Part shown: one piece after another, positions 2,926-32,000 of the stretch
Layout: each line of letters opens with the position of its first letter
Position numbering within the stretch: position 1 is the stretch's first letter
Source: Pseudodesulfovibrio mercurii
GTDB lineage: Bacteria; Desulfobacterota; Desulfovibrionia; Desulfovibrionales; Desulfovibrionaceae
NCBI RefSeq assembly: GCF_000189295.2
Contig: NC_016803.1
Location: 3,240,001-3,272,000, forward strand
DNA length: 32,000 bases
Direction: 5' to 3'
Translations under genes and position numbers: made by a program
Notes under the pieces: model-generated
The model's input: only the letters and a program-made list of their open reading frames with translations
Databases searched by the model: none
What the model was told of the DNA's origin: nothing

Positions 2926-3909
2926 TCACAGCCCCTTCCTGGGGTCGAAGTCCTGGCCGAGCGCGGCCGGGGCCTCGATGGACCAGCCTCTGGACAGGGC
3001 CTTGAGGAAGGGGTGGCGCCGGACGATGTCCTGGACCCAGCCCATGCGGCCCATGTTCACGGCCAGCAGGGTCAGGATCATCATGGGGAAGGGGGCCACC
3101 TGGAAGACCGGGGCCGGGATGGACGGGAAGATTTCCTGCAGATAGATGCCGGACACCTGCAGGGCGGCGAAGAAGAACGCGCCGAGCGCGGCCCGCACCG
3201 GGTGCCAGCCGCCGAAGATGACGATGGCCAGGGCGATCCAGCCCGCGCCCTCGCACCCCTGGGGCCGCCCCCAGCCCGGCTTTACGGCCAGGGAGTAGGC
3301 GCCTCCGGCCAAGCCCACCAGGGCTCCGCCCGCCAGGCAGTAATACAGCCGCACCAGGCGGACCCGGATGCCGCGCCCGAAGGCCGCGCGCGGGGATTCG
3401 CCCACGGCGCGCAGGCGCATGCCGCCCTCGGTGCGGTACATCCACCACCAGCAGAAGGCGACGGCCGCCAGGCTCAGGTAGACCACCGGGGACTGGGAGC
3501 CGAAGATCAGCCCCACGAAGGGCGCGTCGCCCAGGCCGGGGATGGTCCACAGGCCGAGGTCCGGTCCGGGCTGGCGCGAGAAGTTGTGGCCCAGGAAGTA
3601 GGCCAGGTCGCGGGAGAGCAGGGTCAGGATGAAGCCCACGGCCAGCTGGGACTGGCCCAGATAGATGCCGATGACGCCGAGCACGCCCGCGATGGCCGCG
3701 CCCACGGCCGCGCCCGCGACCATGCCGAGCCACGGGGAGTCGAAGGTGGCCGAGCAGGCGAAGGCGGCCATGGCGGACAGCAGGATGGAGCCGTCCAGGG
3801 ACAGGTTGATGATGCCCGCCTTCTCGGTCAGGGTCTCGCCCAGGGTGGCCAGCACCAGGGGCGCTCCGGCCATGAGGATGGCGGCGATGGTCAGGGCGAA
3901 GGTGTCCAT
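2926..3909 (-). CDS. ABC transporter permease, BMP/nucleoside-simple sugar type (second permease of the operon)
   Basis: Polytopic hydrophobic protein. The N-terminus (AAILMAGAPLVLATLGETLTEKAGIINLSLDGSILLSAM) is typical of YufQ/NupQ-type permeases. RBS GGAGGAG lies 6 nt upstream of the ATG at 3909. Confidence 0.9.
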   Translation of the reverse strand: MDTFALTIAAILMAGAPLVLATLGETLTEKAGIINLSLDGSILLSAMAAFACSATFDSPWLGMVAGAAVGAAIAGVLGVIGIYLGQSQLAVGFILTLLSRDLAYFLGHNFSRQPGPDLGLWTIPGLGDAPFVGLIFGSQSPVVYLSLAAVAFCWWWMYRTEGGMRLRAVGESPRAAFGRGIRVRLVRLYYCLAGGALVGLAGGAYSLAVKPGWGRPQGCEGAGWIALAIVIFGGWHPVRAALGAFFFAALQVSGIYLQEIFPSIPAPVFQVAPFPMMILTLLAVNMGRMGWVQDIVRRHPFLKALSRGWSIEAPAALGQDFDPRKGL

Positions 3910-16890: not shown

Positions 16891-17087
16891 GGCGTGGTGG
16901 CCCTTTAAAAAATTGTTAACAAAAATAATTTCATAGAATGCATCAATAATCAATACCGCGTTGCTCGTCATAATGAGACGGACAGGTGAGGATTTTTTTC
17001 CGCAGGTGACCTTTTTCCCCACGGGTTGCGTAACGCGAGACAACCCGCTATCTCTACGGACGGGGAAAAACTGTCTGCAAATCAGGG
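16891..17087. promoter_or_regulatory. Divergent control region between the caspase-1 operon and the sigma operon
   Basis: An AT-rich stretch (16905-16960) stands out in a GC-rich genome. A direct repeat CAGGTGA-NN(N)-T5-7 occurs at 16983 and 17003, exactly 20 bp apart. An inverted repeat CGGGTTG-N12-CAACCCG lies at 17022-17047, 41 nt upstream of the sigma ATG. I could not assign any promoter hexamers with confidence. Confidence 0.3.
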
Positions 17088-17946: not shown

Positions 17947-18843
17947 ATGCAGAGGACGAATCGGCATATGGCGCACCATCTGAGCGACGAACAACTGGCC
18001 GAACTGGGTCTGGCCGCGACGGAAGGAACCGGGCATCCCGGCCCCTGCCCGTCCGCCGAGGATCTGGCCGCACTGCGGGAGGGCCGCCTGGACGCGGCCC
18101 GCCGGGCCGAAATCCTGGCCCATCTCGACGGTTGCGCCGAATGCGTGGCCCGGTGGCTGGCCGTGTCGTCGGTGGACGCATCCTCGGAGGACGCGCCGGA
18201 GCGGGCCGTCCCGGCCCCCAGGGCCGTGTCGCCGGTCTTTGTCCGGACCGTGGCCGTGATTGCGGCCGTTGCCGCCTGCGTGTTTTTCGTCATCCGTCTC
18301 TTTCCCCCGAGCGGGGGCGGGCCGGACTTCGCGCGCTCCGTGGACGCCGGGTACCGGCTCGTGCTGGACGATCCCCGGTTGTACGCCGCCCTGAGCGGCC
18401 CGGTCCGGGAGCTGGCCGCGTCCGGCGGGGTGCGGTCCGCCGGGACCCCGGCCGAAGGCGCGTTCGAGGCCGGGTGGGCGGCGGGCCTGGCCGCGCTGGG
18501 CCGGGGCAGGGAAGGGGTTGCCGCGCCTTCCGGCAACGCGCGCGCGGAGTACGTCTTTGCGGCGGGACGGTGGAGCGTCCTGGTTCATGCGGCGCTGGAC
18601 GCGGAGGTCCCGTCCGGCGGGAATTTCTGGAAGGAGCAGGCGCGGACCGCCGGGCTGTTCCAGGAGCGGACGGCCGCGCTCGCGCCTGGGGACGAGACCC
18701 GGCACCGGGCCCTGTGGGGGGACCTGGCGGCGGTCCTGGACCGTCTGGCCGACGGTTCCGCCACGGCGCGGGACCGGGACCGGCTGTGCAGGCTCCTGGG
18801 CGGGCTCGGTCGGGTCATGGGGGAATCGGACCTCGGCGCCTGA
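17947..18843 (+). CDS. Zinc-binding (ZAS-type) anti-sigma factor, single-pass membrane protein with periplasmic domain
   Basis: HLDGCAECV matches the H-x3-C-x2-C motif. It is followed by a TM segment (VFVRTVAVIAAVAACVFFVI) and an Ala/Gly-rich extracytoplasmic domain of about 190 aa. In-frame starts exist at 17932, 17947 (AGGA 5 nt upstream) and 17968, so the exact start is uncertain. Confidence 0.7.
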   Translation: MQRTNRHMAHHLSDEQLAELGLAATEGTGHPGPCPSAEDLAALREGRLDAARRAEILAHLDGCAECVARWLAVSSVDASSEDAPERAVPAPRAVSPVFVRTVAVIAAVAACVFFVIRLFPPSGGGPDFARSVDAGYRLVLDDPRLYAALSGPVRELAASGGVRSAGTPAEGAFEAGWAAGLAALGRGREGVAAPSGNARAEYVFAAGRWSVLVHAALDAEVPSGGNFWKEQARTAGLFQERTAALAPGDETRHRALWGDLAAVLDRLADGSATARDRDRLCRLLGGLGRVMGESDLGA

Positions 18844-18877
18844 CGAAAAAACCGGGCCGCGTCCGTCTGACAATGTC

Positions 18878-21013
18878 ATGAACATCCACTTGCCCATCAT
18901 CCATCGTCCGAGGCCCGTCGCCGGGTGGCTGCCCGCCCTGGTCCCGGCATTGTTCCTGCTGCTGACGTCGGTCGCCTTCGGGGCGCAGAAGTACGCCCTG
19001 CTCATCGGCATCAACGACTATTCCCACACCGGCTTCCGCTCCCTGCGCGGGGCCAGGAACGACATCGACCTCATGCGCGGGGTGCTCGTCTCCCGCTTCG
19101 GGTTCGCGCCCGGGCATATCGTCCAGCTGGTGGACGGCCAGGCCACGCACACGGCCATCCGCGACGCCTTCCACCGCCTGCGGGACACGGTCGGTCCCGG
19201 AGATTTCGTCTACATCCACTATTCCGGCCACGGCTCCTCGGTCTGCGACGTGAGCGGCGACGAGGGACCCGGCGGGCTGGACTCCACCTGGGTCGCCTTC
19301 GGATCGAGGACCGGCGGCAAGGGCAAGGCCGGGCCCGTGGACTGCCGCCTGCTGCGCGAGCGGGCGGGGACCCTCCCCGCCTGGAGCGACGGCATCGACT
19401 CCTACGACATCCTGGACGACGAACTGAATGGCTGGCTGGTGGAGTTGGGCCGCGTCACGGACAACATCGTGTTCGTGTCCGATTCCTGCCACTCCGGCAC
19501 CGTGACCCGGAGCTTCGAGGCTCGGGCCACGCGCGGCCTGCCCCGCGATTTCCGGCCCTACGTGCCCGGCCGGATCGAGACCGGGACCCTGCGGGGCGTC
19601 CGGATCGGGGCCTGCCGGGACGACGAAAAGGCCGGGGAGTACCGCACCGGGGACAAGGTCTACGGCATGTTCACCTGGTTCTGGGCCAATGCCCTGATGG
19701 AGGTCGGGCCGGACGCCACCTGGCAGGACCTGGTCAAGCGGGCCTCCGCGCTCATCGGCTACGAGTACGCCGGGTATTCCAATCAGCACCCGCAGATCGA
19801 GGGCGGCCTGGACCGGGAGGTCTTCGGCGGCGGCGGGCGGGACCTGGACGACAGGGTGTCCGTGGCCGGAGTGGACGACGGCCTGGTGTCCCTCAATGCG
19901 GGCAGCCTGTCCGGAGTGACCGTCAACTCGCTCTACGTGGACACGTCCCGGGGGGGCGGAGCCGGGGAGCGCAGCGTGCGGATCGTCTCGGTGGAGCCGA
20001 CCATGAGCATCGGCGAGACCTCGGCGGACCTGAAGCCGGGGGACCTGCTGTCCCTGAAGCGGTTCTGGCCCGAAGCCTCCTCCCGGTCGATCTTCGTGCG
20101 CGCGGAGCTGCCCGGCGACGCCCTCTACGCGGCCATGGCCCGCGAGGCCGTGCGGAACATGCCGCAGTTCGAGCTCGCCGGGGACGAATCCTCGGCGGAC
20201 CTGATCCTGCACATCTTCCGGCCCGGCAGGGGGGCGGCCAAGGACGCCGCCCGGCAGGAAGGCCCGCCCGCATCGGACGAAAGCGCCCCGGTCCAGTGCT
20301 GGATTCTTTCCCCGGACGGGCGGCCCCTGGCCGAGGGCGGGCGCAGGCTCACCCTGGCCGTGACGCGGGACTGGGAGAAGCCCCTAGAGGATGCCCTGGA
20401 ACGGGTCTCCAGGGTGCGCCATCTGCTGACCCTCAAGTCGCCGCCGGGCGCGGCCCGGCCGGTGATCATGGAGATGACCATCTGGAAGCCCGCCGTTGCC
20501 GGGGCCACGGGCGAGATTCGGGAGATCGGCGGCAGGCGCTACGCCCGCTGGGGCAGCTTCGACACGGACGTTTCCGACACGGCCGTCCTGGCCGTGGGCG
20601 ACGTGCTGACGTTCGGCATGTACAACCAAAGCGATACGCCGTATTACTGCTATCTGATCGATATCACTGACGACGGCAGGATTCTGCCCTTCTACCCGAC
20701 CGAGGAGAAGGGCATGGAATCGGGCAAGGTGCTGCCGGGGCAGACCCTGGACACGGCGGACGACCTTTCCCTGGAAATGGACCGGTCCGGGCGCGAATAC
20801 ATCCAGCTGATCGTCAGCCGGGACCCGGTGGACATCGGCCTGCTCAACCAGCGCCGGGCCGGGTCTTCCGGCAAGGACCTGGGCTTTGCCGGGAGCTTCC
20901 TGCTGCCCGCCTCCGGCCGTGGCAAGGACGTGGACCGGAGCGTCCCCCCGGCGCAGTGGGCAACGGAAAAACTGGTCCTGGACATAGCCGCCCGGGGCGG
21001 GAGCAACTCATGA
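18878..21013 (+). CDS. Exported caspase-like peptidase (C14 family) with middle domain and C-terminal DUF4384-like domain (paralogue 2)
   Basis: The real start is the ATG at 18878 (MNIHLPIIHRPRPVAGWLPALVPALFLLLTSVAFGAQ, a signal/anchor). Motifs: ALLIGINDY, catalytic His in HYSGHGSS, catalytic Cys in VSDSCHSGT. The C-terminal VGDVLTFGMYNQSDTPYYCYLIDITDDGRILPFYPTEE...YIQLIVSRDP is DUF4384-like. The upstream 120 codons of the track ORF are a shadow of the anti-sigma gene. Confidence 0.9.
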   Translation: MNIHLPIIHRPRPVAGWLPALVPALFLLLTSVAFGAQKYALLIGINDYSHTGFRSLRGARNDIDLMRGVLVSRFGFAPGHIVQLVDGQATHTAIRDAFHRLRDTVGPGDFVYIHYSGHGSSVCDVSGDEGPGGLDSTWVAFGSRTGGKGKAGPVDCRLLRERAGTLPAWSDGIDSYDILDDELNGWLVELGRVTDNIVFVSDSCHSGTVTRSFEARATRGLPRDFRPYVPGRIETGTLRGVRIGACRDDEKAGEYRTGDKVYGMFTWFWANALMEVGPDATWQDLVKRASALIGYEYAGYSNQHPQIEGGLDREVFGGGGRDLDDRVSVAGVDDGLVSLNAGSLSGVTVNSLYVDTSRGGGAGERSVRIVSVEPTMSIGETSADLKPGDLLSLKRFWPEASSRSIFVRAELPGDALYAAMAREAVRNMPQFELAGDESSADLILHIFRPGRGAAKDAARQEGPPASDESAPVQCWILSPDGRPLAEGGRRLTLAVTRDWEKPLEDALERVSRVRHLLTLKSPPGAARPVIMEMTIWKPAVAGATGEIREIGGRRYARWGSFDTDVSDTAVLAVGDVLTFGMYNQSDTPYYCYLIDITDDGRILPFYPTEEKGMESGKVLPGQTLDTADDLSLEMDRSGREYIQLIVSRDPVDIGLLNQRRAGSSGKDLGFAGSFLLPASGRGKDVDRSVPPAQWATEKLVLDIAARGGSNS

Positions 21014-21662: not shown

Positions 21663-22187
21663 ATGTTTCGGAAATTCTGCATCGGGGTTTGTCTGGCATT
21701 CGCGGCGGTCGCCCTGGCCGGGGTCGCCCTGGCCGGGGAGGTGATCGACAGCGACACCCTGGTCCGGCAGCTGGAGGACGGCGGGAGCGGCGGCATGCGC
21801 ACGCGCGGCTTCACGGTCAACAAGGCCGCGGCCGAGACGCCCAGGCCCTCGGCGACCGTCTACATCTATTTCGCCACCAACAGCGCGGTCATCACCGGCG
21901 AGCAATCCTTCAGGCAGCTCGACGAGCTGGGCCGGGCCCTGACCTCAAGCGCCCTGCGCGGGGCGCGCATGGAGATCGGCGGCCATACGGACAGCGTGGG
22001 CAGCGATGCCTACAACCTGCAATTGTCCAGGAAGCGGGCCCAGGCCGTGAGCGACTATCTCAACAAGAAGTATGGGTTCACGGCTGCGGCCGTCACGGGC
22101 TACGGCGAGTCCGCCCCCGTGGCCTCCAACGAGACCGCCGAGGGGCGGGCCGGGAACCGCCGGGTGGTCATCACCCGCCTGGATTAG
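21663..22187 (+). CDS. OmpA/MotB-family peptidoglycan-binding protein (exported)
   Basis: Signal peptide MFRKFCIGVCLAFAAVALAGVALAGE. OmpA_C motifs: IYFATNSAVI, IGGHTDSVGSDAYNLQLSRKRAQAV, GYGESAPV, NRRVVI. Confidence 0.9.
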   Translation: MFRKFCIGVCLAFAAVALAGVALAGEVIDSDTLVRQLEDGGSGGMRTRGFTVNKAAAETPRPSATVYIYFATNSAVITGEQSFRQLDELGRALTSSALRGARMEIGGHTDSVGSDAYNLQLSRKRAQAVSDYLNKKYGFTAAAVTGYGESAPVASNETAEGRAGNRRVVITRLD

Positions 22188-22206
22188 GCTCGGGGAAGTC
22201 TGCGCC

Positions 22207-24279
22207 GTGAAATTCAAGTGGAAGCTCCTGCTGGTCCTGCTGGCCGTGGCCCTGGTGCCCCTGCTGGTCATGCGGGTGGTCATCCAGGACGCGGACGAGG
22301 AGTCCGCCCGTGTCCTGGCAGAGCGGTTCGGCCTGGGCGTGTCCGTGGGCCGGGACGCGGACGACGACCTGTCCATGCCCCTTGAGGACATCCTCGTGGC
22401 CCGGACCGAATCCGAACTGCTCTCCGTGGCCCGACGGTCCGCCCGGACGGCCGGGGACCGCTTCCGGCTGCTCGCCCAGGTGCAGCGGGAACAGCTGCGC
22501 CTGCTGGCCGGAGACGCGCCCCAGGATACGCCGCCCGAGCGGACCGGGGCCGGGAGCGGCTACTGGGCCTGGACCGGGGACGGCAAGCGGTCCCGGCTGG
22601 AGGTGGATCTCTCCTCGCTCACCACGCTCTCCCCGGAAGGCGGCGTCCCTGCGGCCCCGGACGGGTTTCTCGGGACGGCGCTCCCCGCCCTCGAATTCGG
22701 CAAGCGCTCCCTGCCCCGGCTGGTCCTGTGGCAGTGGGCCCGGTCCACGGATGGGACCGTCTGCCTGTATCCCGGACTGCCGGGCAACGGGGGCGCGCTC
22801 GTCCGGGAGTTCGCCGCCGTGGGCAGGGAGGCGGTCGGCACACCGGTTACGGTCCTGGCCAGCCCGGCCACGCACCAGCTGATGCTGCTCTCGACCCTGC
22901 GGGGCCGGACCCTGTCATCCCCCACGGTCACGGTGGCGGCCGCCATGGACGACCTGTTCGACAGCGCGGACGCGGTGGGGTTGCCCGCCGGCATCCAGTG
23001 GTTTTTCGTCCAGGCGGACGGGGAGGTGGTGCGCCTGCTCGCCTCGCGCACGCCCGGCGACGATCCCGGCTCCCTGTACTGGGCCTCGGGCGACCCCCTG
23101 CCCGACCTCGGGCCTGACCGGGGCGGCCCGCTCCGGGCCGGTCTCCGGGACGGCGGCCACGGGTCGTTTCGCCGGGGCGAAGGGGACGCCGACCATCTCT
23201 GGATCTTTGCCGGGCTGGGGGTGCGCGGCCTGGGCGTGGTCCTGCGCCTGTCCGTGTCCTCCCTGCTCGGGCAGTCCCTCCAGGCCGAGCGGTTCGTCGG
23301 CGAGACCATCCGGGTCCGGCACCGGACCATGATGCTGGTCATCGCGGGCCTGGGGCTGCTGACCCTGCTCGCGGCCCTGGCCCTGTCGAGCACCATGACC
23401 CGGCGCATGGAGCGGCTGGCCGAGGCGTTCAGGCAGGTGGCGGCGGGCGATTTTTCGGTCCGGGTGCGGGTGCGCGGCCGGGACGAGCTGGCCCAGCTGG
23501 GCGCGACCTTCGACGAGATGGTCCCGGCCCTGGACGAGCAGGTGCGCATGAAGCGGGACATGGCCGTGGCCCGTGGCATTCAGCAGTGCCTCATGCCCGA
23601 GGACGCGCCGTCCGCGCCGGGGCTGGACGTGGCCGGAATGTCCATCCCGCACGACGAGACCGGCGGGGATTACTATGATTTCTTCCGCTTCGACAACGGC
23701 GAGGTCGGGGCCGTGGTCGGGGACGTCACCGGACACGGCATCCCGGCGGCCCTGCTCATGGCCAGCTCGCGGGCCTTCCTCCGCGCCAACCTCGATGGGG
23801 GGGCGGATGCGGGACAGGTCCTGACCCGCGCCAACGAGCTGCTTTCGCGGGACATCCAGACCACGGGCCGGTCCATGACCGCGTTCCTGTGCGCCGTGGA
23901 CCCTGCCCGCCGGATGATCCGCTGGTCCCGCGCCGGACACGATCCGGCCATCGTCTACCTGCCCGGCAGCGGCGCCTTCGAGGAACTGGCCGGGGACAGC
24001 GGGCTGCCGCTGGGCGTCATGGACGGGATGGAATATGTGGAGGAGCGGCGGGAACTGCCCGAGGGCGCCGTGGTCTTCTTCGGCACGGACGGGGTCTGGG
24101 AGACCCATGGCCGGGACGGGGAGCTGTTCGGCAAGGACCGGGTCAGGGCGATCCTCCGGGAGAACGCGGACCGTTCCGCCGGGGCCATCGCCGACGTGAT
24201 CCTGTCCTCGGTCCGGGCCTTCGCCGGTGACGACGGGGTCGAGGACGACCTGACCCTGATCGTGCTCAGGCTGGTCTAG
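22207..24279 (+). CDS. Membrane sensor PP2C-type (SpoIIE/RsbU-like) serine phosphatase with periplasmic domain and HAMP
   Basis: GTG start at 22207 (VKFKWKLLLVLLAVALVPLLV is TM1). A periplasmic region of about 370 aa leads to TM2 (MMLVIAGLGLLTLLAALALS) and a HAMP domain (FRQVAAGDFSVRVRVRGRDELAQLGATFDEM). PP2C motifs: ARGIQQCLMP, GGDYYDF, VVGDVTGHGIPAALLMA, FGTDGVWE, DDLTLIVL. Confidence 0.9.
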   Translation: MKFKWKLLLVLLAVALVPLLVMRVVIQDADEESARVLAERFGLGVSVGRDADDDLSMPLEDILVARTESELLSVARRSARTAGDRFRLLAQVQREQLRLLAGDAPQDTPPERTGAGSGYWAWTGDGKRSRLEVDLSSLTTLSPEGGVPAAPDGFLGTALPALEFGKRSLPRLVLWQWARSTDGTVCLYPGLPGNGGALVREFAAVGREAVGTPVTVLASPATHQLMLLSTLRGRTLSSPTVTVAAAMDDLFDSADAVGLPAGIQWFFVQADGEVVRLLASRTPGDDPGSLYWASGDPLPDLGPDRGGPLRAGLRDGGHGSFRRGEGDADHLWIFAGLGVRGLGVVLRLSVSSLLGQSLQAERFVGETIRVRHRTMMLVIAGLGLLTLLAALALSSTMTRRMERLAEAFRQVAAGDFSVRVRVRGRDELAQLGATFDEMVPALDEQVRMKRDMAVARGIQQCLMPEDAPSAPGLDVAGMSIPHDETGGDYYDFFRFDNGEVGAVVGDVTGHGIPAALLMASSRAFLRANLDGGADAGQVLTRANELLSRDIQTTGRSMTAFLCAVDPARRMIRWSRAGHDPAIVYLPGSGAFEELAGDSGLPLGVMDGMEYVEERRELPEGAVVFFGTDGVWETHGRDGELFGKDRVRAILRENADRSAGAIADVILSSVRAFAGDDGVEDDLTLIVLRLV

Positions 24280-25941
24280 CTATTTGCCCATGTATTCGTC
24301 CAGCGCCTGGTTCACGCTCTCTTTGAGGAAGAACAGGTAGCGGGTCACCGGATAGTAGCTCCCCCGCGATTCCTTCAGCGTGAAGGTCTTCAACGTGTCC
24401 TTTTTCGCATCGTAGAAGTTGCACAGGACGTATATTTGATTCGAGGTGTTCAGGGTGCTCAGGTAGGTCGACACGGCCATCAGGGTGTCGGCGTGCAGCT
24501 GAACCGCCATCTGCCTGAGGATATTGGTGTCGGGGGGCCGGGAGGCCCCGCCGGACCACAGGATCGCCTCCGCGTTCGGGGACAGGGTATAGGGATGCGC
24601 CGGCGAATCCCCGTCTCCGGCGCAAAAGACGGAAAGGACGTCCTTTCTCTCGGCCAGGACGGAGAGCAGCTTTTCCCGTCCCTTCACCTCCCAGTCGCGC
24701 CGCTTGTATTTGTAGGTCCAGGCAAAGGCCATGGGCGCCACAGAAAGGACGAGCCTGCCGTTGGCGGCGCTCAGGGCTTTTTGCCTGGCGGACAGGGGAT
24801 CGACGTCGGTATGGACGATGTCCGATCCGCCTGAAACGATCCGGTTCTGCTGCAATGCGGCCACCTGTTGCCGCATGGCTTCCAACTGGGCCTTGAGCTC
24901 CTCGTCGGTCTGGCCGGATTGCGGGGCCGGGACGGGCTGCGGCCGGGTCTCGGCCTGTTCCTGCATGGCGGCCATCTGCTGCTGCACGGCCGCGAGCTGG
25001 GCCTTGAGCTCCTCGTTGGAATCGTCGGGCTGCCGCGTCTGGACCAGTTCGGCGTTCTGCCGGGCCTGCTCCTGGAGCGCCGCCATCTGCTGTTGCATGG
25101 CCAGGAGCTGCGCCTTGAGCGCCTCGGTCTCGGGGGTGACGGCCGGGGCGGGCGGGGGCGTCGGCGCGGCGACCGGTTCCGGTTTCTTCTCACGGAAATA
25201 GAACTTGCCGATCAGGGACGAGGATTCCCACGGCGTCTGGCGACCGCCGGTGTCCCGGATCACGCCGCGCCGGACCTGCATGAAGGTGTCGTAGATGTCC
25301 AGGCCGGGGGTGTTCATGGCCGCGAGCAGGTTCTTGGTGTAGACCCCGTTGCGTCCCTCCCCGTCGGCCGCCACCGAGCCCGGAGCCGTGGCGTAGGCCA
25401 TGATGGACCCGGTGGGCGCGTCCATGCGGGCCAGGCCGGTGGTCTCGGAGCGCATGGACCGGGCAAAGGGGTTGTTGCGGCAGGCGTCCAGGATGATGAT
25501 GTTCATCTGGTTGCCCGCCAGCTTCAGGTGATCCAGGATGCGGCCCGCCGAGACCGCCTCATAGGGCACGTCCGCCTCGGTCTCGATGTCCGCGTCCACC
25601 GGGATGAGGTAGTTCTCCCCGTTCACCTGGATGCCGTGCCCGGCGAAATAGAAGAGGCCCACGCCGCCGTCCGCCAGCTGCCTGGACAGCTTGCGCACGG
25701 CGTTCTCCATCTGGCGCCGGGTGCCGTCGGTCAGGAGCGTGACCCGGAAGCCGAGTCCCTCGAGTTCCCTGCCGACGTCCGTGGCGTCGTGGACGGGGTT
25801 GGCCAGGGGCATGCCGGGGTAGGCGGAATTGCCGATGACCAGGGCGGTTTTCTGGGGAGCGGCGGCCCTGGCGGGCGCGAGAAGGAGCAGGGTTGTCGCC
25901 AACAGCGAGACGACGATGGCGATGGGGGTTCTGGTGTGCAC
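24280..25941 (-). CDS. Exported caspase-like peptidase (C14) with Pro-rich linker, 3 x 37-aa coiled-coil repeat and unknown C-terminal domain (paralogue 3)
   Basis: GTG start at 25941 (GGAG 6 nt upstream), with signal peptide TPIAIVVSLLATTLLLLAPARA. Motifs: ALVIGNSAY, catalytic His in YFAGHGIQ, catalytic Cys in ILDACRNNPF. Then a KKPEPVAAPTPPPAPAVTPE linker, three EELKAQLxAxQQQxAAxQEQ repeats, and about 190 aa with no family I recognise. Confidence 0.9.
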   Translation of the reverse strand: MHTRTPIAIVVSLLATTLLLLAPARAAAPQKTALVIGNSAYPGMPLANPVHDATDVGRELEGLGFRVTLLTDGTRRQMENAVRKLSRQLADGGVGLFYFAGHGIQVNGENYLIPVDADIETEADVPYEAVSAGRILDHLKLAGNQMNIIILDACRNNPFARSMRSETTGLARMDAPTGSIMAYATAPGSVAADGEGRNGVYTKNLLAAMNTPGLDIYDTFMQVRRGVIRDTGGRQTPWESSSLIGKFYFREKKPEPVAAPTPPPAPAVTPETEALKAQLLAMQQQMAALQEQARQNAELVQTRQPDDSNEELKAQLAAVQQQMAAMQEQAETRPQPVPAPQSGQTDEELKAQLEAMRQQVAALQQNRIVSGGSDIVHTDVDPLSARQKALSAANGRLVLSVAPMAFAWTYKYKRRDWEVKGREKLLSVLAERKDVLSVFCAGDGDSPAHPYTLSPNAEAILWSGGASRPPDTNILRQMAVQLHADTLMAVSTYLSTLNTSNQIYVLCNFYDAKKDTLKTFTLKESRGSYYPVTRYLFFLKESVNQALDEYMGK

Positions 25942-25991
25942 GGTAAACTCCGGGGACAGGGTGAGACTCGGTGGCTCGGCGGCAGGCCGTG

Positions 25992-26020
25992 AACATATCA
26001 ACAAGCGCCAACTTGTTCAA
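25992..26020 (-). promoter_or_regulatory. Candidate sigma70-type promoter for caspase paralogue 3, overlapping a short palindrome
   Basis: The minus strand reads TTGAAC (26020-26015), a 17-nt spacer, then TATGTT (25997-25992). The spacer contains AACAAG-N8-CTTGTT. This would place the TSS about 45 nt upstream of the GTG at 25941 and downstream of the track's ATG at 26004. Confidence 0.3.
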
Positions 26021-26164: not shown

Positions 26165-26207
26165 CGGAAAACGGGCCGGGGCCCCGCACGTCCGCACGGG
26201 GCCCCGG
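26165..26207 (-). terminator. Terminator-like GC hairpin after the amphi-Trp/ParA/GAK operon
   Basis: A perfect 11-bp stem pairs CCGGGGCCCCG (26176-26186) with CGGGGCCCCGG (26197-26207) around a 10-nt loop. On the minus strand it is followed by CCCGUUUUCC. It starts 25 nt after the TAA at 26232-26234. Confidence 0.5.
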
Positions 26208-26231
26208 TTCCGGATGGGTGTCGCGGGCCGG

Positions 26232-26663
26232 TTATTCGCCCGATATCTTGAGGGATTCGGCCTGGGAGCCGTCGTCGAGCCATTCCAGCTCGATCTCGCA
26301 TTTGGCCTTGTCCTTTTTGCGGGCCAGCTTGAGCTCCACCTGCATGGTCTCGGGCACGCCGAGGACCAGGGTGCCGCCCTCGTTCTCGGCGCGGATGACG
26401 CCGGATTCGATGGAGTCGGCCAGGTCCTTGAGGTAGGCGACCACCTGGGCCGTGTCCATGGTCTGTTCGATCTTGATCTTGCCTTTGCCCATCGTGGTCT
26501 CCTCGTTGTCGGTCGCGGCCGGGCGGAACAGGCCGGTGCGCGGTCCGGCCGTGTCCGCCCGCGGGGCGGGTTGCGTGGTTTCGGGGGCCGGGCCGGAGGC
26601 CTCGGGGGTCGCGGCGGGCGTGACCCACTCAAGAGGGTTGGTCCCGAGTCTCTCGTCGCTCAT
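26232..26663 (-). CDS. Amphi-Trp domain protein with Pro/Thr/Ala-rich N-terminal extension
   Basis: KIKIEQTMDTAQVVAYLKDLADSIESGVIRAENEGGTLVLGVPETMQVELKLARKKDKAKCEIELEWLD matches my memory of the amphi-Trp domain: alternating-charge strands and a conserved Trp in an ElEW motif. The ATG at 26663 overlaps the ParA stop (ATGA), and the 57-codon extension has high GC3. An alternative internal ATG at 26492 has a strong GAGGAG RBS. Confidence 0.75.
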   Translation of the reverse strand: MSDERLGTNPLEWVTPAATPEASGPAPETTQPAPRADTAGPRTGLFRPAATDNEETTMGKGKIKIEQTMDTAQVVAYLKDLADSIESGVIRAENEGGTLVLGVPETMQVELKLARKKDKAKCEIELEWLDDGSQAESLKISGE

Positions 26664-27415
26664 GGGGCACCTCTGCGGAGCAGTTCCAGGGCCAGGTTCC
26701 GGTAGTCGGCGGCCCCGTGGCTGCGGGGTTTGTAGGTGAAGATGTCCCGGCCGAAACTGGGGGCCTCGGCCAGGGAGATGTTGTCGCGGATGGTCGTATC
26801 CAGCAGGGCGTCGCCGAAGTGGTCCTTGATCTTGCGCCGGATCTCCCGGTTGAGCTTGCGGGTGCGTTGGTAGCGGGTCATGAGGATGCCGGACAGGGTG
26901 AGATGCGGGTTCCAGCCCTCGCGGATGGCCTTGACCGTCTCCATGAGCTTGCCCAGGGATTGCAGGGCCAGGAATTCCGGCTGCACCGGCACGAGCAGTT
27001 CGTTCGCCGCGACCATGGCGTTCAGTGTGAGCATGCCGAGGTTGGGCGGGCAGTCGATGATGGCGAAGTCGTACCCTCCGGTCCCGGCCAGGGCGTCGCG
27101 CAGCCGGGTCTCGCGGTTCCCGGCCGAAGCCAGGTCCACCTCGGTCCCGGCCAGGGCCACGGAGGCGGGCACCACATGCAGTCCGCCGACCTCCATGGTC
27201 ACGCTGTCCAGGGGACACTCGCGCATCAGGGCCGCGCCCATGGTCCGGGGCAGCTCGTGGGCCATGATGCCCAGGGAATAGGTCAGATGCGCCTGGGGGT
27301 CGAGGTCCAGCAGCAGGACGCGCCGGTCCTGCCGGGCCAGGGCGGCCCCCAGGTTCACGGCGGTGGACGTCTTGCCCACGCCCCCCTTCTGGTTCAGTAC
27401 GGCGATGATGCGCAT
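26660..27415 (-). CDS. ParA/Soj/MinD-family P-loop ATPase (orphan, no ParB seen)
   Basis: Deviant Walker A in IIAVLNQKGGVGKTSTAVNLG, plus LLLDLDPQAHLT, Walker B DFAIIDCPP, and LVPVQPEFLALQSL. Confidence 0.95.
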   Translation of the reverse strand: MRIIAVLNQKGGVGKTSTAVNLGAALARQDRRVLLLDLDPQAHLTYSLGIMAHELPRTMGAALMRECPLDSVTMEVGGLHVVPASVALAGTEVDLASAGNRETRLRDALAGTGGYDFAIIDCPPNLGMLTLNAMVAANELLVPVQPEFLALQSLGKLMETVKAIREGWNPHLTLSGILMTRYQRTRKLNREIRRKIKDHFGDALLDTTIRDNISLAEAPSFGRDIFTYKPRSHGAADYRNLALELLRRGAP

Positions 27416-27427
27416 GCCGGTCCCGGT

Positions 27428-27613
27428 CTAGTGCGTGGTGTGCAGGGTGATCTTCTTGATGACGTACTCCCGGCCGTAGCGGCAGGTCAGGGAGTTGATC
27501 CGTTCGAGAATGCGGTCCCGCTCCTCGTCCACCATGTCGGGGTTCTCCTCTTCGATGCCGAACAGGTCGGCCACCTCATTCCATTCGAAACATTGATCTT
27601 GCGTTTCAGTCAT
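27428..27613 (-). CDS. Small acidic hypothetical protein (61 aa)
   Basis: MTETQDQCFEWNEVADLFGIEEENPDMVDEERDRILERINSLTCRYGREYVIKKITLHTTH. RBS GGAG lies 7 nt upstream of the ATG at 27613. The gene ends 12 nt before the ParA start. I recognise no family, and it is too short for certainty. Confidence 0.5.
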   Translation of the reverse strand: MTETQDQCFEWNEVADLFGIEEENPDMVDEERDRILERINSLTCRYGREYVIKKITLHTTH

Positions 27614-27645
27614 TGTTTTTCTCCGCAATGGGCTCGTGCTCGTTG

Positions 27646-28191
27646 TTATTTCTTGTCGGCGGACTTGGCCGACGTTTTCTTGGCGATGGATTTCTTGGAT
27701 GCCGCCTTTTTTGCCGCTTTTTTCCCGTCCGGGTCCTTTTTGGCCGCCGCCTTTTTCGCTTCGAATTTGGCCTCGGATTTGGCCTCGGATTCGGGCCTGG
27801 CTTCGGTGGTGGCCGGGACCCTGGCCGGTTCGGTGGTGGCCGGGGCCATTGCCGGAATCTTGGCGGCCGGGGCCTGGGCCGCGGGCTTCATGGCCGGGGC
27901 GCCGCCCTCGGGCTGGATCGCCGGTGCGGGCGCGGGCTCGGCGTCGCCGATCCGGAGTTCGTCCCCTCCGGCCTCGGTCCAGCTCAGCTCGAAGCCGATC
28001 TTCTGCTTGTCGTTCTTGACTTTGGCCTCCACCTTGACGGCCACCTGGGCGCCGGGCGTCATGACCACGTGCTCCCCGCCGCTCTCCACCACGATGGTGC
28101 CGGACCGGAAGCTCCTGGCCAGGTCTTCGATGTAGGACACGGCGTCCTTGTACTCCAGGACCTTCTTGACACTGATCTTTTGCTTATCCAC
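27646..28191 (-). CDS. Amphi-Trp domain protein with Pro/Ala-rich linker and Lys/Ala-rich (histone H1-like) C-terminal tail
   Basis: GTG start at 28191 (GGAGG 8 nt upstream). The domain KISVKKVLEYKDAVSYIEDLARSFRSGTIVVESGGEHVVMTPGAQVAVKVEAKVKNDKQKIGFELSWTE parallels the other amphi-Trp protein. The tail reads ESEAKSEAKFEAKKAAAKKDPDGKKAAKKAASKKSIAKKTSAKSADKK. Confidence 0.75.
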   Translation of the reverse strand: MDKQKISVKKVLEYKDAVSYIEDLARSFRSGTIVVESGGEHVVMTPGAQVAVKVEAKVKNDKQKIGFELSWTEAGGDELRIGDAEPAPAPAIQPEGGAPAMKPAAQAPAAKIPAMAPATTEPARVPATTEARPESEAKSEAKFEAKKAAAKKDPDGKKAAKKAASKKSIAKKTSAKSADKK

Positions 28192-28217: not shown

Positions 28218-29426
28218 TCAGCAAAGCGACAGCAAAAATTCGCTCAGGACCCGGCCGTCGAGGTGCGGCGCGCTCCGCGCCGTGACCAGGGGGCCGTCTA
28301 TGACCGTGAAGCCGCGCTCCTCGATCCGCTTTCTGTCGATGCCCCCGGCGTACCGCCCGTTTTTCGAGTCCACCAGGACGTAGCCCAGGACCTCGCCGTC
28401 TCCGGTACCGCCGCCGTCCCCGTCGTGGGCCTCGACGTCGGCCCGCAGGTGGCGGCAGAGGATGTCCGCCCGCTCGGCCACGGACACGCCGGGCGTCTCG
28501 GGGTCCGCGCCCGTGGACGGGACGAAGACCTTGGGGCAGGTGTTGGCGGCCACGGCCCGGCCCACGCCGTCGACCAGCAGGTTGGCCACCACGCTGGAAT
28601 AGAAGCTGCCCGGCGGGTAGCAGATCAGGTCCGCCTTGCCGATCCACTCCCGGACCTTCTTGCGGATGGCCGTGCGGACCGGTTCCCGGTCGTCCGGGGA
28701 GCGGGTCAGCCAGATGTCCTCGATGGGCGAGGCGAGCGGGGCGGACTCCTTGCCGGTAATCCGGTGCTGTCCCACGATGGTCTCGCCGTCGGCCAGGCGC
28801 ACGGCCAGGTGCAGGTCCTGGTTCACGGTCGGGCGGACCACGCCGCAGACCTGGACCAGCTTGGAGAAGAGGTAGATGACCGGGTCCAGTTGGCGGCGGT
28901 TAGACAGGTACCCGGCGGTCAGGACCAGGTTGCCGATGGACGCGCCCCGGAGGTCGAAGTCCTCGGGCATGCGTTCCAGGAATTCGTAGAAATGGTTGCG
29001 GATGAGCTTGCGCATGGGGTCCGGGATGCGCCGGACCAGGGGGTGCGCCCCGGCGGCCATGGCGTCCAGGTCGGCGCGCAGGGCGTCGCGCTCCCCGTCC
29101 TTGGGCAGCCGGTGGGTGAACAGGTTGTATATCTCGGGGTTGCCCTGCACGGACTGGTCGGCCAGGGCCATGAGCCGGTTGCGGATGTCGCCCACGGCGG
29201 GCATGCCGAAGGCCTTGCGGATGACCGCCGAGCTGCCCCCCGAGTCGAAGGGGGTGATCAGGTGGATGGAGTTGTGGGTGTAGCGGATGAGCTCCCTGGA
29301 GGTGTCGCGCAGGGCCGAGCCGCCGCTGAAGAAGAGCACGGACGGGCCGAGTTCGGGGGCCCGCCGGAACTGCTCCAGCTTTCGCGGGTCCGGGATGGTG
29401 ACGTCCCTGGTGACTCGAATGCGCAC
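28218..29426 (-). CDS. CofD/YvcK-family protein (CofD-related protein of the GAK system)
   Basis: GTG start at 29426 (GGAG 6 nt upstream), 11 nt after the kinase stop. The N-terminal VLFFSGGSALRDTSRELI and ITPFDSGGSSAVIR resemble the CofD/UPF0052 nucleotide-binding region, and LICYPPGSFYSSVVANLL resembles its C-terminal motif. The upstream 276 codons of the track ORF are a shadow. Confidence 0.85.
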   Translation of the reverse strand: MRIRVTRDVTIPDPRKLEQFRRAPELGPSVLFFSGGSALRDTSRELIRYTHNSIHLITPFDSGGSSAVIRKAFGMPAVGDIRNRLMALADQSVQGNPEIYNLFTHRLPKDGERDALRADLDAMAAGAHPLVRRIPDPMRKLIRNHFYEFLERMPEDFDLRGASIGNLVLTAGYLSNRRQLDPVIYLFSKLVQVCGVVRPTVNQDLHLAVRLADGETIVGQHRITGKESAPLASPIEDIWLTRSPDDREPVRTAIRKKVREWIGKADLICYPPGSFYSSVVANLLVDGVGRAVAANTCPKVFVPSTGADPETPGVSVAERADILCRHLRADVEAHDGDGGGTGDGEVLGYVLVDSKNGRYAGGIDRKRIEERGFTVIDGPLVTARSAPHLDGRVLSEFLLSLC

Positions 29427-29437
29427 TGTCCGCTCCG

Positions 29438-30535
29438 TCAGTCGGCCGGGAGGAGGCCGGTTTGCATGTACCGCAAGCATATCTCGGAAGCGCGGTCGAA
29501 GTCCACGCCTCCGGCGATTTCGATGAGATCGGTCTTGGACAGGAGCGCGGCGTAGGCGTCCTCGTCCGGGTCCGCCCGCCGGGCCGGGTCGTCGGGCAGG
29601 TAGAACAGCCCCGTGGACTTCATGAACGCGGGCAGCAGGTCGCGGCGCTCCCGTGGGTCCACCAGACCGGCGCGCAGGGGGGCGCGGTCCCGGCTCCAGT
29701 TGAGGACGACCAGTGCGTTCATGGGGCAGCGCAGCTCGAATTTGCCCGGTCCGTAGCACTCGTCGATGAGGGCGTCGTACTTGTGCTCCAGCTGCCACAG
29801 CTCGTCCTTGGGCAGGGACAGGAACTTCTCGCGCATGCCCGGCTCCACGATGCAGTGCAGGTCCGGGTTGTGCAGGGCCGTGCCGGGGTTGATGCGCGGC
29901 TGCTTGGCCACCCCGTACATGACCAGGCCGTCGCCGTCCTCCTCGACCATGACCCGGTCGTTGGAGATGAAGGTCGTGCCCCTGCTCATGAGGTGCAGGG
30001 CCAGGGTGGACTTGCCCGCGCCCGAGAATCCGGCCAGGGAGATGCCGCGTTCGCCCGAACGCACCCCGGCGGCGTGGCCCAGGAACCCGCCCCTGTTGAG
30101 CTTCCACTCGATGAACCGGTTGTTGACGAAATTGATGACCTGGTTGGGGTTGTCCAGGCACGGCCCCACGGCCACGTTCTCGCCCCGGCCGAAGAGGAAG
30201 TGCATGCCGGTCAGCCGCTTGCGGACCACGCGGCCGTCGGGCAGGTCGATCCACTCCTCCTTGATCCTGGTCTTGCCGGGATCGGGCTCCTTGACGTTGA
30301 AGGCGAGGTCCGTGTCCACGGCCGGGACCTCGTGGGCCGAGAGGGTGATCTCCGGCTCGCCGTCCCCGGTCAGGAACTCCTTGAAATAGTCGGCCAGGAC
30401 GTCGTGCAGGGCGTCCGTGGAGCTGTCCACCCGGATGCGGCAGCCGCCGAGGTCCAGGTGGAGGGTGTGCCCGGCCGGGCAGGCCGTCTTCACGGCCTCG
30501 GCCAGTTCCCTGCGGGTGGTGCCGGTCAGCTTCAT
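29438..30535 (-). CDS. HprK-related P-loop kinase (HprK-related kinase B type)
   Basis: The ATG at 30535 overlaps the ATP-grasp stop (ATGA). The P-loop GISLAGFSGAGKSTLALHLM followed by FISNDRVMV resembles the C-terminal kinase domain of HPr kinase/phosphorylase. Confidence 0.8.
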   Translation of the reverse strand: MKLTGTTRRELAEAVKTACPAGHTLHLDLGGCRIRVDSSTDALHDVLADYFKEFLTGDGEPEITLSAHEVPAVDTDLAFNVKEPDPGKTRIKEEWIDLPDGRVVRKRLTGMHFLFGRGENVAVGPCLDNPNQVINFVNNRFIEWKLNRGGFLGHAAGVRSGERGISLAGFSGAGKSTLALHLMSRGTTFISNDRVMVEEDGDGLVMYGVAKQPRINPGTALHNPDLHCIVEPGMREKFLSLPKDELWQLEHKYDALIDECYGPGKFELRCPMNALVVLNWSRDRAPLRAGLVDPRERRDLLPAFMKSTGLFYLPDDPARRADPDEDAYAALLSKTDLIEIAGGVDFDRASEICLRYMQTGLLPAD

Positions 30536-31404
30536 TTGAGTTTCTCCATGACGTAGTCCACGTAGCGCGCGGCGGCGTCGATGCCGCTGGTCTCCTGGAT
30601 GCCCCGGAAGCCCCCGAACACGGAGACCTCGAAGACGTAGGGGCCGTCGTCGGTGATGGCCACGTCCACGCAGGTGAAGTCGAGGTTGAAGTCGGCCTGG
30701 GCCTTGCGGGCCAGCTCGATGATCTCGGGCGCGGGCTCGTAGGGCCGGTATTTGCCGCCCGAGGCCGTGGTCGTGTTCCAGGCCCCGTTGGTCTTGCACC
30801 GGGCGTAGGTGGTCAGGTACTCGCCGCCCAGGAAGGCGATGCCCAGGTCCAGATCGCCCAGCTCGATGGTCTTCTGGATGTACAGGATCGGGTTCTCGGC
30901 CTTGTACTCCTCGATGGCCGCCCGGGCGTCCGGGCCGTTCCTCAGCACGAACATGCCGCGCGCCTTGGAGGTGTACAGCGGCTTGAACACGGCCTCGCCG
31001 TATTGCTCCAGCGCCGTCAGGGCCTGGTCCACGGACTCCGTGACGGTCGTGGGCGGCATGGGGATGTCCTTGAGTTGCAGCGAGATGGTGCAGGACAGCC
31101 GGTCCAGGGCGCGCAGGATGGCGTAGGGCGCGCTGAATATCCTGAGCCCCCGCTCGTGCAGGTAGCGCAGGACCTCCAGCCGGTCCAGGAGGTCCGGGGA
31201 ATAGCGCGCGCCGATCTTCTTGATGATCAGGGCGTCGAAATCGTTCAGGGTGTGCCCGTCGTAGAAGGCCCGGCCCGAGGGTAGGTCCAGGCGCACGTCC
31301 TCCATGTCGATGAGCACGCGCTCCCCGCCGGTCTTCTCGGCCACGGTGTCCGCCAGTTTTTCGGAGGACCAGCCGCCCTCGATGCCAATGACTCCTATCT
31401 TCAC
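30532..31404 (-). CDS. RimK-like ATP-grasp ligase (ATP-grasp enzyme of the GAK system)
   Basis: GTG start at 31404 (AAGGAG 7 nt upstream). The 290-aa protein has the ATP-grasp layout: MKIGVIG pre-ATP-grasp region, VFKPLYTSKARGM, ILYIQKTIE, and DFTCVDVAITDDGPYVFEVS (Mg/ATP-binding C-terminal motif). Confidence 0.9.
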   Translation of the reverse strand: MKIGVIGIEGGWSSEKLADTVAEKTGGERVLIDMEDVRLDLPSGRAFYDGHTLNDFDALIIKKIGARYSPDLLDRLEVLRYLHERGLRIFSAPYAILRALDRLSCTISLQLKDIPMPPTTVTESVDQALTALEQYGEAVFKPLYTSKARGMFVLRNGPDARAAIEEYKAENPILYIQKTIELGDLDLGIAFLGGEYLTTYARCKTNGAWNTTTASGGKYRPYEPAPEIIELARKAQADFNLDFTCVDVAITDDGPYVFEVSVFGGFRGIQETSGIDAAARYVDYVMEKLK

Positions 31405-31423: not shown

Positions 31424-32000
31424 CTAGTAGTAGAGGACGTCCTCGGGCAGGGAGAAAAGCTCCCAGTCCCCGCCCCGGTATTGATGAATCTTTTCCAGCA
31501 GGAACATGGACCGGTTGTACATCTCCTTGGCGAACTTGAAGTTCAGCTCGAACCGGGTGGAGGTGTAGAAGCTGCGCGCCAGGGCGAAGGCCAGCCGGGC
31601 CTGGACCGTGGGGTCCTCGTGCCGCTGGGCGAACTCCAGGATGAACCCGTAGAACTGCCGGATGACCGAGTTGATGCGTTTGCGGTGGTCCGAATCGAAC
31701 AGGGGCACGCGGAAGTTGGAGACCAGGAAGACCGAGGCGTCCTGGACGTAGTCGAAGTCCCGCGAGCGGTACAGGTCGATGTAGTGGATCTGCTGGGCCT
31801 CGTGGTTGTAGACCACGTTGTTGATGTTGAAGTCGCCGTGGATGAAGACCGAGAAGGGGGCTTCCAGCTCGTCCTCGATGTCCGCGCAGGCCGACAGCAG
31901 GGCCTCGGTGGACCGGACCTCCGACGGCCCCAGGCTCTTGGGGTCGCGCCAGAACTCGGGGTGGGTCTGGAGCACGCCTTCCAGGCGGGACTGGATCTGC
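31424..32000 (-). CDS. Aminoglycoside-phosphotransferase/choline-kinase-like (APH fold) kinase, C-terminal part (5' end beyond window)
   Basis: Brenner-type catalytic motif FIHGDFNINNVV, followed by IHYIDLYRS (metal-binding Asp). The frame stays open to nt 32000, so the listed GTG at 31975 is internal. The stop lies 19 nt upstream of the ATP-grasp start. Confidence 0.75.
   Translation of the reverse strand, partial: QIQSRLEGVLQTHPEFWRDPKSLGPSEVRSTEALLSACADIEDELEAPFSVFIHGDFNINNVVYNHEAQQIHYIDLYRSRDFDYVQDASVFLVSNFRVPLFDSDHRKRINSVIRQFYGFILEFAQRHEDPTVQARLAFALARSFYTSTRFELNFKFAKEMYNRSMFLLEKIHQYRGGDWELFSLPEDVLYY

Follow-up and report, generated by a model that had tools for sequence, protein, structure and literature searches.

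At the 3' end of a GAK-system operon in Pseudodesulfovibrio mercurii, a gene for a ParA/Soj-like ATPase lies between the genes for two amphi-Trp proteins, and the second of these, amphi-Trp protein 2, is very likely the cognate partner of the ATPase. The operon is part of a 32,000-nucleotide stretch of contig NC_016803.1 (positions 3,240,001 to 3,272,000; hereafter the window), whose own numbering is used throughout. All genes of the locus are on the minus strand, with intergenic gaps of 12–32 nt. ParA (251 aa; 26660-27415) is 100% identical to a P. mercurii protein and matches PF13614 with 168.7 bits, and amphi-Trp 2 (143 aa; 26232-26663), which is P. mercurii DND132_2921 (100% identity), matches TIGR04354 with 62.1 bits (cut-off 31) and PF20068 with 47.6 bits. 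As read in the sequence, the TGA of ParA and the ATG of amphi-Trp 2 overlap as ATGA. We assign amphi-Trp 2 to ParA because a short N-terminal tag is the sole conserved element of its otherwise disordered N-terminus and tracks the ParA clade, and because the same tag is found on DNA-binding partners in partition-like contexts and on ParP-like proteins. Our overall reading, to which we give a probability of about 0.6, is that the two proteins form a cognate pair at the 3' end of the GAK operon, in which amphi-Trp 2 would be a three-part adaptor, an assembly of amphi-Trp proteins the cargo, and a ParA gradient the means of positioning it.

The N-terminal tag of amphi-Trp protein 2

The tag itself, MSDERLGTNPLEWVTP, spans residues 1-16 of amphi-Trp 2 (26616-26663). 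The N-terminal peptide of the protein, MSDERLGTNPLEWV, is kept unchanged in 24 of 25 database orthologues, which begin MS[DE]x(K)RLG[TSA]NPLxWV; the 25th is annotated from an internal Met. Behind the tag lies a linker of about 40 residues (residues 17-57; 26493-26615) that is hypervariable in both length and sequence among the orthologues, up to the amphi-Trp domain, and that consists of Pro, Ala and Thr to 59%. In an AlphaFold2 model, residues 1-55 are predicted to be disordered, with a predicted local distance difference test score (pLDDT) of 51-62, and the domain scores 83-95. The preliminary description of this region had noted both the overlapping start codon and a disordered, Pro/Thr/Ala-rich N-terminus, and these observations hold. 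The remaining part, the amphi-Trp domain (residues 58-143; 26235-26492), is acidic, with an isoelectric point (pI) of 4.8. Modelled by itself with AlphaFold2 (mean pLDDT 87.5), it has an amphipathic helix (14-30) packed on a four-stranded sheet, and the invariant Trp of the family follows the last strand. Across the six reading frames of the window the tag pattern matches exactly once, where amphi-Trp 2 starts; amphi-Trp protein 1 and the 61-aa protein, which lie upstream of ParA, are without it. A homology search with amphi-Trp 2 alone found only Pseudodesulfovibrio relatives, and a wider reach needed an alignment as the query.

The amphi-Trp domain of protein 2 starts at a conserved internal Met, Met58, with GAGGAG ahead of it. 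A purine run resembling a Shine-Dalgarno sequence (GAGGAG, CAGGAGG or GCGAGGA) stands 6-9 nt before the internal ATG in seven of eight tagged genes, despite the hypervariable linker: in the window (26490-26515, minus strand) and in L001, L002, L003, L007, L010 and L069 (L numbers denote the loci fetched for comparison). This suggests either that a second, untagged product of 86 aa is made or that an ancestral start has been retained. The GenBank annotation of the D. caledoniensis protein (P0143) gives 86 aa, beginning at the internal Met, so that the tag is cut off.

We then compared the genes that follow relatives of ParA. The gene directly downstream begins with a tag of the form R-[LM]-G-x-[DN]-P-[LF] in 58 of the 78 loci whose ParA is at least 43% identical to that of the window, and in none of nine below 43%. 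By identity, the tagged fraction is 7/7 at 60% and above, 25/32 between 50 and 60%, 26/39 between 43 and 50%, and 0/9 below 43%. Where ParA relatives at 52-62% identity occur on unrelated contigs, outside any GAK cassette, a tagged gene again adjoins the ParA stop. As an unbiased sample we scanned metagenome contigs with a back-translated clade signature, DPQAHLTY. Since this signature was taken from the ParA alignment, the scan is blind to the partner. Among the distinct downstream open reading frames (ORFs) next to a ParA of at least 43% identity, 47 of 67 were tagged ([RK][LMIV]G.[DN]P[LFMI] within the first residues), versus 6 of 454 at control stops, which were the stops of other long ORFs treated by the same procedure. 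Judged from these sequences, the tag is strictly associated with the ParA clade and not with the C-terminal domain of the partner.

The partners that carry the tag are diverse. Most are small proteins resembling ribbon-helix-helix (RHH) proteins, and Pfam searches with 28 representative partners returned Amphi-Trp, PAS, CheW (E 7e-36), ribbon-helix-helix families, ParB_N and DUF4177; a profile comparison of tagged partners with PDB sequences gave noise only. The tagged partners of L007, L010 and L040 have amphi-Trp domains; those of L006, L011 and L013 are PAS-like and about 350-390 aa long; L012 (352 aa) and L029 have CheW/ParP-like partners, L008 a DUF4177-like one and L041 a ParB_N protein.

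Two of these groups have further features. In L006 (8761-10223) and L013 (5753-7121), ParA is followed by a tagged PAS protein and then by an amphi-Trp protein of 89-93 aa, encoded separately and without the tag; in this three-gene variant the tag and the amphi-Trp domain thus sit on separate polypeptides. By eye, the C-terminus of the tagged PAS protein of both loci resembles a histidine-kinase ATPase, and the Pfam scan found no such domain. The CheW proteins of L012 (5756-6814) and L029 combine the tag with a second conserved element, GLDALIRDTR, and the ParA upstream of them is 53-54% identical to that of the window. In L012, the only one of the two whose neighbourhood was inspected, the tagged CheW gene lies outside any che operon.

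No ParA in the plasmid collection was more than 47% identical to that of the window, so the clade is no common plasmid par type among sequenced plasmids. We inspected the best two plasmid matches and found the partner tagged in one, CP026658 (L137), and untagged in the other. CP026658 encodes a ParA 47% identical to that of the window, followed by a tagged RHH protein, beside a primase gene. The frame of this partner gene (at about 3330-3741) opens at MAAKSKKMGVDPFSG, but its GenBank coding sequence begins at VADAPNT, so that here too the annotation cuts off the tag. The Geobacter plasmid pSD carries a ParA of a neighbouring clade, with an RHH partner that has a different, ParB-like N-terminus.

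The ATPase, the amphi-Trp proteins and the GAK cassette

ParA looks catalytically intact, as judged by its motifs. Its Walker A sequence is NQKGGVGKT, which has the deviant form (xKGGxxK[T/S], including the signature lysine) that defines ParA/MinD ATPases together with aspartates of Walker A' and Walker B, in agreement with the preliminary description, which had recognised the KGGVGKT core; and K10, K15, D37, D39 and D121 are invariant in an alignment of 25 clade sequences. The protein belongs to a clade marked by DLDPQAHLTYSLG. It matches PF01656 with 87.3 bits and NF041546 with 117.7 bits, under the cut-off of 180 of the latter; FleN and BcsQ are among its weaker family matches, and no NCBIfam match carries the name ParC. 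Its closest solved structures are M. xanthus ParA (8RAY, E 4.5e-59) and T. thermophilus Soj (E 2.4e-57, full length), and the match to McdA (6NON) has E 5.5e-15 over residues 2-165 only.

ATPases of the ParA/MinD family use as their positioning matrix either the nucleoid, through basic residues (ParA-like), or the membrane, through a C-terminal amphipathic helix (MinD-like). The window ParA has a pI of 9.2 and a strongly basic stretch, RYQRTRKLNREIRRKIK, which we take to lie where Soj proteins bind DNA. Its C-terminus (...LALELLRRGAP) is, by eye, unlike a membrane-targeting helix. Nucleoid binding by this ParA is therefore plausible from its sequence.

The preliminary description had reported no ParB or helix-turn-helix (HTH) partner and no parS-like repeats, and our searches agree. 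Pfam scans of the other window ORFs picked as likely genes revealed no ParB or HTH domain, a search of the whole 32-kb window allowing up to three mismatches found no parS-like site, and between 25900 and 28400 there is no repeat array, only scattered short repeats that are mostly inside coding sequence.

The domain shared by amphi-Trp proteins is some 70-90 residues long, combines an amphipathic helix with beta-strands and includes an invariant Trp. Both such proteins of the locus score above the cut-offs of TIGR04354 and PF20068 and match amphi-Trp models only. In alignments of 83 amphi-Trp sequences, Trp is the sole invariant column; the ELEW and ELSW motifs that had been pointed out in the two proteins are indeed present and hold this residue, at W128 of 143 and W71 of 181. 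In Dissulfuribacter thermophilus, the amphi-Trp protein DITHS69_2464 is among the 20 most abundant proteins under one growth condition, according to a proteomics table (PMC13490349), an abundance that fits a structural or stoichiometric role better than a regulatory one.

The other amphi-Trp protein of the locus, amphi-Trp 1 (181 aa; 27646-28191), starts with GTG, has AGGAGG 9 nt upstream, and matches TIGR04354 with 65.1 bits (cut-off 31). Its amphi-Trp domain is followed by a Pro/Ala linker and a basic, Lys/Ala-rich tail (residues 136-181; 27646-27783). This tail is histone-H1-like, of AKKA type, with 17 Lys or Arg in 46 residues and a pI of 10.2. In L001-L003 orthologues and many Desulfovibrionaceae proteins a basic K/A/P-rich tail is conserved in composition, not in sequence, and it is absent from the GAK-associated amphi-Trp proteins inspected elsewhere (L004, L005 and stand-alone family members). 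Histone-H1-like Lys/Ala tails occur on the granule-associated proteins PhaF and AlgP. Amphi-Trp 1 shares with them a folded domain followed by a C-terminal basic tail; it differs in having no sequence homology to them, and no polyhydroxyalkanoate or polyphosphate genes were identified.

ParA had been described as preceded by a small acidic protein and another amphi-Trp protein, and both are there. The 61-aa ORF (27428-27613) has an ATG start, 15 Asp or Glu against 7 Lys or Arg, and no Pfam or NCBIfam match. It is present in L001, L002 and L069 and was not detected in the more distant syntenic L003. Its substitutions are biased to third codon positions, where the GC content is 0.82, and by these signs it evolves like a real gene. 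The family is very small: a library of 1.84 billion proteins yielded no more than 14 representative clusters, of 58-72 aa. The gene is a lineage-specific insertion that separates amphi-Trp 1 from ParA. Three related genomes, those of P. karagichevae, D. caledoniensis and a Desulfovibrio metagenome-assembled genome, preserve the order amphi-Trp 1, (61-aa ORF), ParA, amphi-Trp 2, so the arrangement is no chance juxtaposition.

These four genes directly follow the enzymes of a GAK cassette, contiguously and on the same strand, a setting that the preliminary description did not mention. The GAK system is defined in silico, by NCBIfam TIGR04354-TIGR04357, and its signature genes (ATP-grasp, kinase B, CofD-like and amphi-Trp) are all adjacent here and above their NCBIfam cut-offs. 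The enzymes are a RimK-like GAK ATP-grasp protein (30532-31404; TIGR04356, 451.3 bits, cut-off 300), an HprK-related kinase B (29438-30535; TIGR04355, 548.7 bits, cut-off 200) and a CofD-like protein (28218-29426, start approximate; TIGR04357, 546 bits, cut-off 340). Ahead of them lies the C-terminal part of a protein with PhoU and EcKL/APH-like kinase-fold regions (31424-32000), recognised by a weak EcKL match and by its homologues. As listed, this ORF begins at a GTG at 31975, and its homologues have about 550 aa, so the gene probably extends upstream past the window end. Full-length PhoU + EcKL homologues of 544-574 aa occur in L134-L136 and L005, and the part within the window is 82-90% identical in L001-L003.

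GAK loci elsewhere (L134-L136, L004 and L005) begin with an amphi-Trp gene and further comprise PhoU/EcKL, ATP-grasp and kinase B and, in most cases, CofD. L134-L136 have one to three more amphi-Trp paralogues, which trail the cassette in L134 and L136 and in L135 are encoded close by on the other strand; behind the L005 cassette there is one weak amphi-Trp match (E 3.9e-05), and the L004 sequence ends at the CofD gene. Given these trailing paralogues, two amphi-Trp genes behind the enzymes are the normal GAK layout, which the window shares along with the full set of signature genes. What is peculiar to L001-L003, L069 and the window is that ParA is inserted between two trailing amphi-Trp genes, in the closest relatives together with the 61-aa gene, and that the upstream paralogue has a basic tail and the downstream one an N-terminal extension. 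Compared with other GAK loci, ParA, the tag of one amphi-Trp paralogue, the basic tail of the other and the 61-aa protein are additions, found among the GAK loci fetched only in these of Pseudodesulfovibrio/Desulfovibrio type: three genomic loci (L001-L003), one metagenome contig (L069) and the window. ParA is thus a lineage-specific addition and not a core GAK gene. A scan of the genome collection with the CofD-like protein returned five loci; such a single-protein query reaches close relatives only.

A proposed positioning system and its alternatives

Many ParA/MinD ATPases are still considered orphans, as their partner proteins are too diverse to be recognised (PMC10241942). Those partners that have been described contact and activate the ATPase via a short N-terminal peptide, and the remainder of the protein binds the cargo (PMC10241942; PMC12462528). 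In the chemoreceptor-array protein ParP, which has this layout, the N-terminal region binds ParC, and a Pro-rich linker connects it to a CheW-like C-terminal domain that integrates into the array (PMC5706961). Amphi-Trp 2, with its tag, its linker rich in Pro, Ala and Thr and its folded domain, is laid out just as ParP is described, and as in ParC-ParP (Vibrio, Pseudomonas) and PpfA-TlpT (Rhodobacter), which position chemoreceptor arrays, the partner gene is immediately downstream of a ParA-like ATPase. In L012 and L029, ParA proteins of the same clade (54% identical) are paired with tagged CheW proteins of ParP layout. The window system differs from ParC-ParP in that amphi-Trp 2 ends in an amphi-Trp domain and not in a CheW-like (AIF) one, in that Pfam scans of the window found no che genes or CheW domain, and in that its ParA is Soj-like.

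The preliminary description had arrived at an adaptor role by another route, likening the Trp of ELEW and ELSW to that of McdB, the carboxysome-positioning adaptor. The defining features of McdB are a Trp among its four C-terminal residues, a coiled coil, a region rich in Gln and neighbouring carboxysome genes (PMC7182216). The window shares with McdA-McdB a ParA-type ATPase followed by the gene for a small, partly disordered adaptor, and the expectation of a protein cargo. We nevertheless rejected an McdAB identity. W128 and W71 are not within the last four residues; they belong to the core of a beta-strand domain and are 16 and 111 residues away from the respective C-termini. The AlphaFold2 model has no coiled coil, no Gln-rich stretch is evident by eye, Pfam scans of the window found no BMC, RuBisCO or Ccm domains, and ParA is much closer to Soj (2.4e-57) than to McdA (5.5e-15). 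The suggestion that amphi-Trp proteins serve as ParA adaptors is therefore partly supported, right in outline and for a different reason: the conserved tag argues for amphi-Trp 2, whereas amphi-Trp 1 and the 61-aa protein, both untagged, do not share in this argument.

In the mechanism that we propose, ParA would attach non-specifically to the nucleoid by way of its basic surface, and the tag of amphi-Trp 2 (14-16 residues; R-L-G-T-N-P-L-E-W-V) would dock on the ATP-bound ParA dimer and stimulate its ATPase. The Pro/Ala/Thr linker would act as a disordered spacer between tag and domain, and the acidic amphi-Trp domain would join the cargo. That cargo would most likely be an assembly of amphi-Trp paralogues, of which there are several copies per GAK locus. 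Amphi-Trp 1 would be one member of the assembly, with a Lys/Ala tail that could bind the nucleoid or another polyanion, and ParA would distribute or segregate the whole by the usual gradient (Brownian-ratchet) mechanism. We consider an amphi-Trp assembly the most economical cargo because the clade co-occurs with amphi-Trp genes, fused or separate and with or without GAK enzymes, and because GAK loci hold multiple amphi-Trp paralogues. An assembly that contains amphi-Trp proteins thus remains our candidate for the cargo. The binding of the tag to ParA, the stimulation of its ATPase, nucleoid binding, amphi-Trp self-assembly, the identity of the cargo and its link to GAK chemistry are what we infer from this pattern.

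If this is correct, the new element is a ParA/partner module with an amphi-Trp partner domain, hosted in a GAK cassette, both of which were previously uncharacterised. The more general result is a clade-wide N-terminal tag with interchangeable cargo domains, which amounts to a sequence rule for a large ParA clade: an N-terminal tag on the gene adjoining the ParA stop would identify the partner, whatever its cargo domain. The same rule exposes mis-annotated start codons in public records. It would also provide a first functional handle on the amphi-Trp domain and the GAK system, both known only from computational curation, and by it amphi-Trp proteins are predicted to form something that has to be spatially distributed or inherited. 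The tag and its ParA could, in addition, be a compact, transplantable positioning module.

Several observations weigh against this proposal. About 25% of clade members are without a recognisable tagged gene downstream, part of which is ORF-calling noise. The Pseudodesulfovibrio tag is net acidic, with one basic and three acidic residues, whereas the partner peptides described so far are called positively charged; it does retain the single Arg that is near-universal in the clade. A Foldseek search of the PDB with the full-length or the domain-only model of amphi-Trp 2 returned nothing below E = 1 (TM-score at most 0.3), and with no significant structural neighbour, self-assembly or cargo binding by the domain is conjecture. 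A cargo that itself binds DNA, through the tail of amphi-Trp 1, would be atypical for ParA. ParA was not found within 7-10 kb in the GAK loci L004, L005 and L134-L136, and given its absence from these cassettes outside the Desulfovibrionaceae, the GAK system does not need it. Finally, a literature search yielded no paper on the GAK system and one passing mention of amphi-Trp, with nothing mechanistic.

A bolder form of the proposal, which we regard as doubtful, treats the tag (R-L-G-x-D/N-P-L-x-W) as a portable address of one Soj-like ParA clade that has been fused again and again to RHH, ParB_N, CheW, PAS, DUF4177 and amphi-Trp domains. Here it would hand over to ParA a hitherto unrecognised cytoplasmic body of amphi-Trp paralogues made or modified by the GAK enzymes, a new class of cargo. 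The conserved internal start could then co-produce untagged subunits and so set the density of tags on the body, and the basic tail of amphi-Trp 1, together with the PhoU-domain gene of the cassette, may point to a link with a polyanionic granule such as polyphosphate.

An alternative that dispenses with positioning likens ParA to BcsQ, FlhG/FleN or Soj in its effect on DnaA: it would be an ATP-dependent switch governing the assembly or the regulation of the GAK pathway, and the tag would do no more than connect the sensing of ATP state with the ATP-grasp, kinase and CofD-like enzymes as they modify or turn over amphi-Trp proteins. ParA shares an operon with these three enzymes, the PAS-containing tagged partners of L006, L011 and L013 suggest signalling inputs, and members of the ParA/MinD family with non-positioning roles are established. 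We nonetheless hold this to be unlikely: this clade with its tag also pairs with DNA-binding proteins and with CheW proteins of ParP type, which are classic contexts of positioning, ParA/amphi-Trp pairs occur with no GAK enzymes nearby (L007 and L010), and GAK cassettes of other lineages work without ParA.

Type Ib partition systems (ParF-ParG, delta-omega) combine a small ParA with an RHH centromere-binding protein whose flexible N-terminal tail activates the ATPase. ParA and amphi-Trp 2 could be such a module, with the amphi-Trp domain binding a centromere, perhaps aided by the tail of amphi-Trp 1, so as to segregate a chromosome region or an integrated element. This fits the Soj-like ParA, the histone-H1-like Lys/Ala tail of amphi-Trp 1 and the composition of the clade, most of whose tagged partners are small RHH or ParB_N DNA-binding proteins, one of them plasmid-encoded next to a primase gene; both systems would also follow the same logic, in which a tail at the N-terminus activates the ATPase (PMC12462528). 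The window partner, however, has in place of RHH an acidic amphi-Trp domain that matched no DNA-binding fold, and amphi-Trp domains are otherwise stand-alone paralogues within enzyme cassettes. There is neither a parS site nor a centromere-like repeat array near the genes, several species have the locus in syntenic position on the chromosome, and the window ORFs scanned with Pfam include no mobile-element genes. A partition role of this kind is thus improbable, and we rejected a canonical DNA-partition locus outright, on the missing DNA-binding domain, the missing centromere and the pI of 4.8.

That the adjacency is fortuitous, with an orphan ParA of unlinked function and an amphi-Trp 2 extension that is an untranslated spacer ahead of a real start at Met58, is scarcely credible: the good GAGGAG Shine-Dalgarno sequence before the internal ATG and the one GenBank annotation that begins there (P0143) favour it, but 14 in-frame residues are the same in 24 of 25 orthologues, which no non-coding spacer would conserve, the frame stays open, the ATGA overlap is conserved, and the motif recurs in unrelated proteins of other phyla, always adjoining the ParA stop.

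The ends and surroundings of the operon

Directly after the stop of amphi-Trp 2, RNA folding indicates a GC-rich hairpin followed by UUUU (26166-26212, minus strand), and the segment 26150-26235 of this strand folds with -46.9 kcal/mol (z = -2.3). The hairpin is likely the operon terminator; because its T-run is short, a scan for the terminator consensus did not flag it. A promoter scan gave no match. Beyond the hairpin, three clustered genes with caspase domains (Peptidase_C14), one of which also has DUF4384, and a gene for a HAMP-SpoIIE phosphatase lie beside the locus (15499-17043, minus; 18518-21013, plus; 24280-26004, minus; 22072-24279, plus). The nearest caspase gene, which shares the strand of amphi-Trp 2, begins about 230 nt downstream of it.

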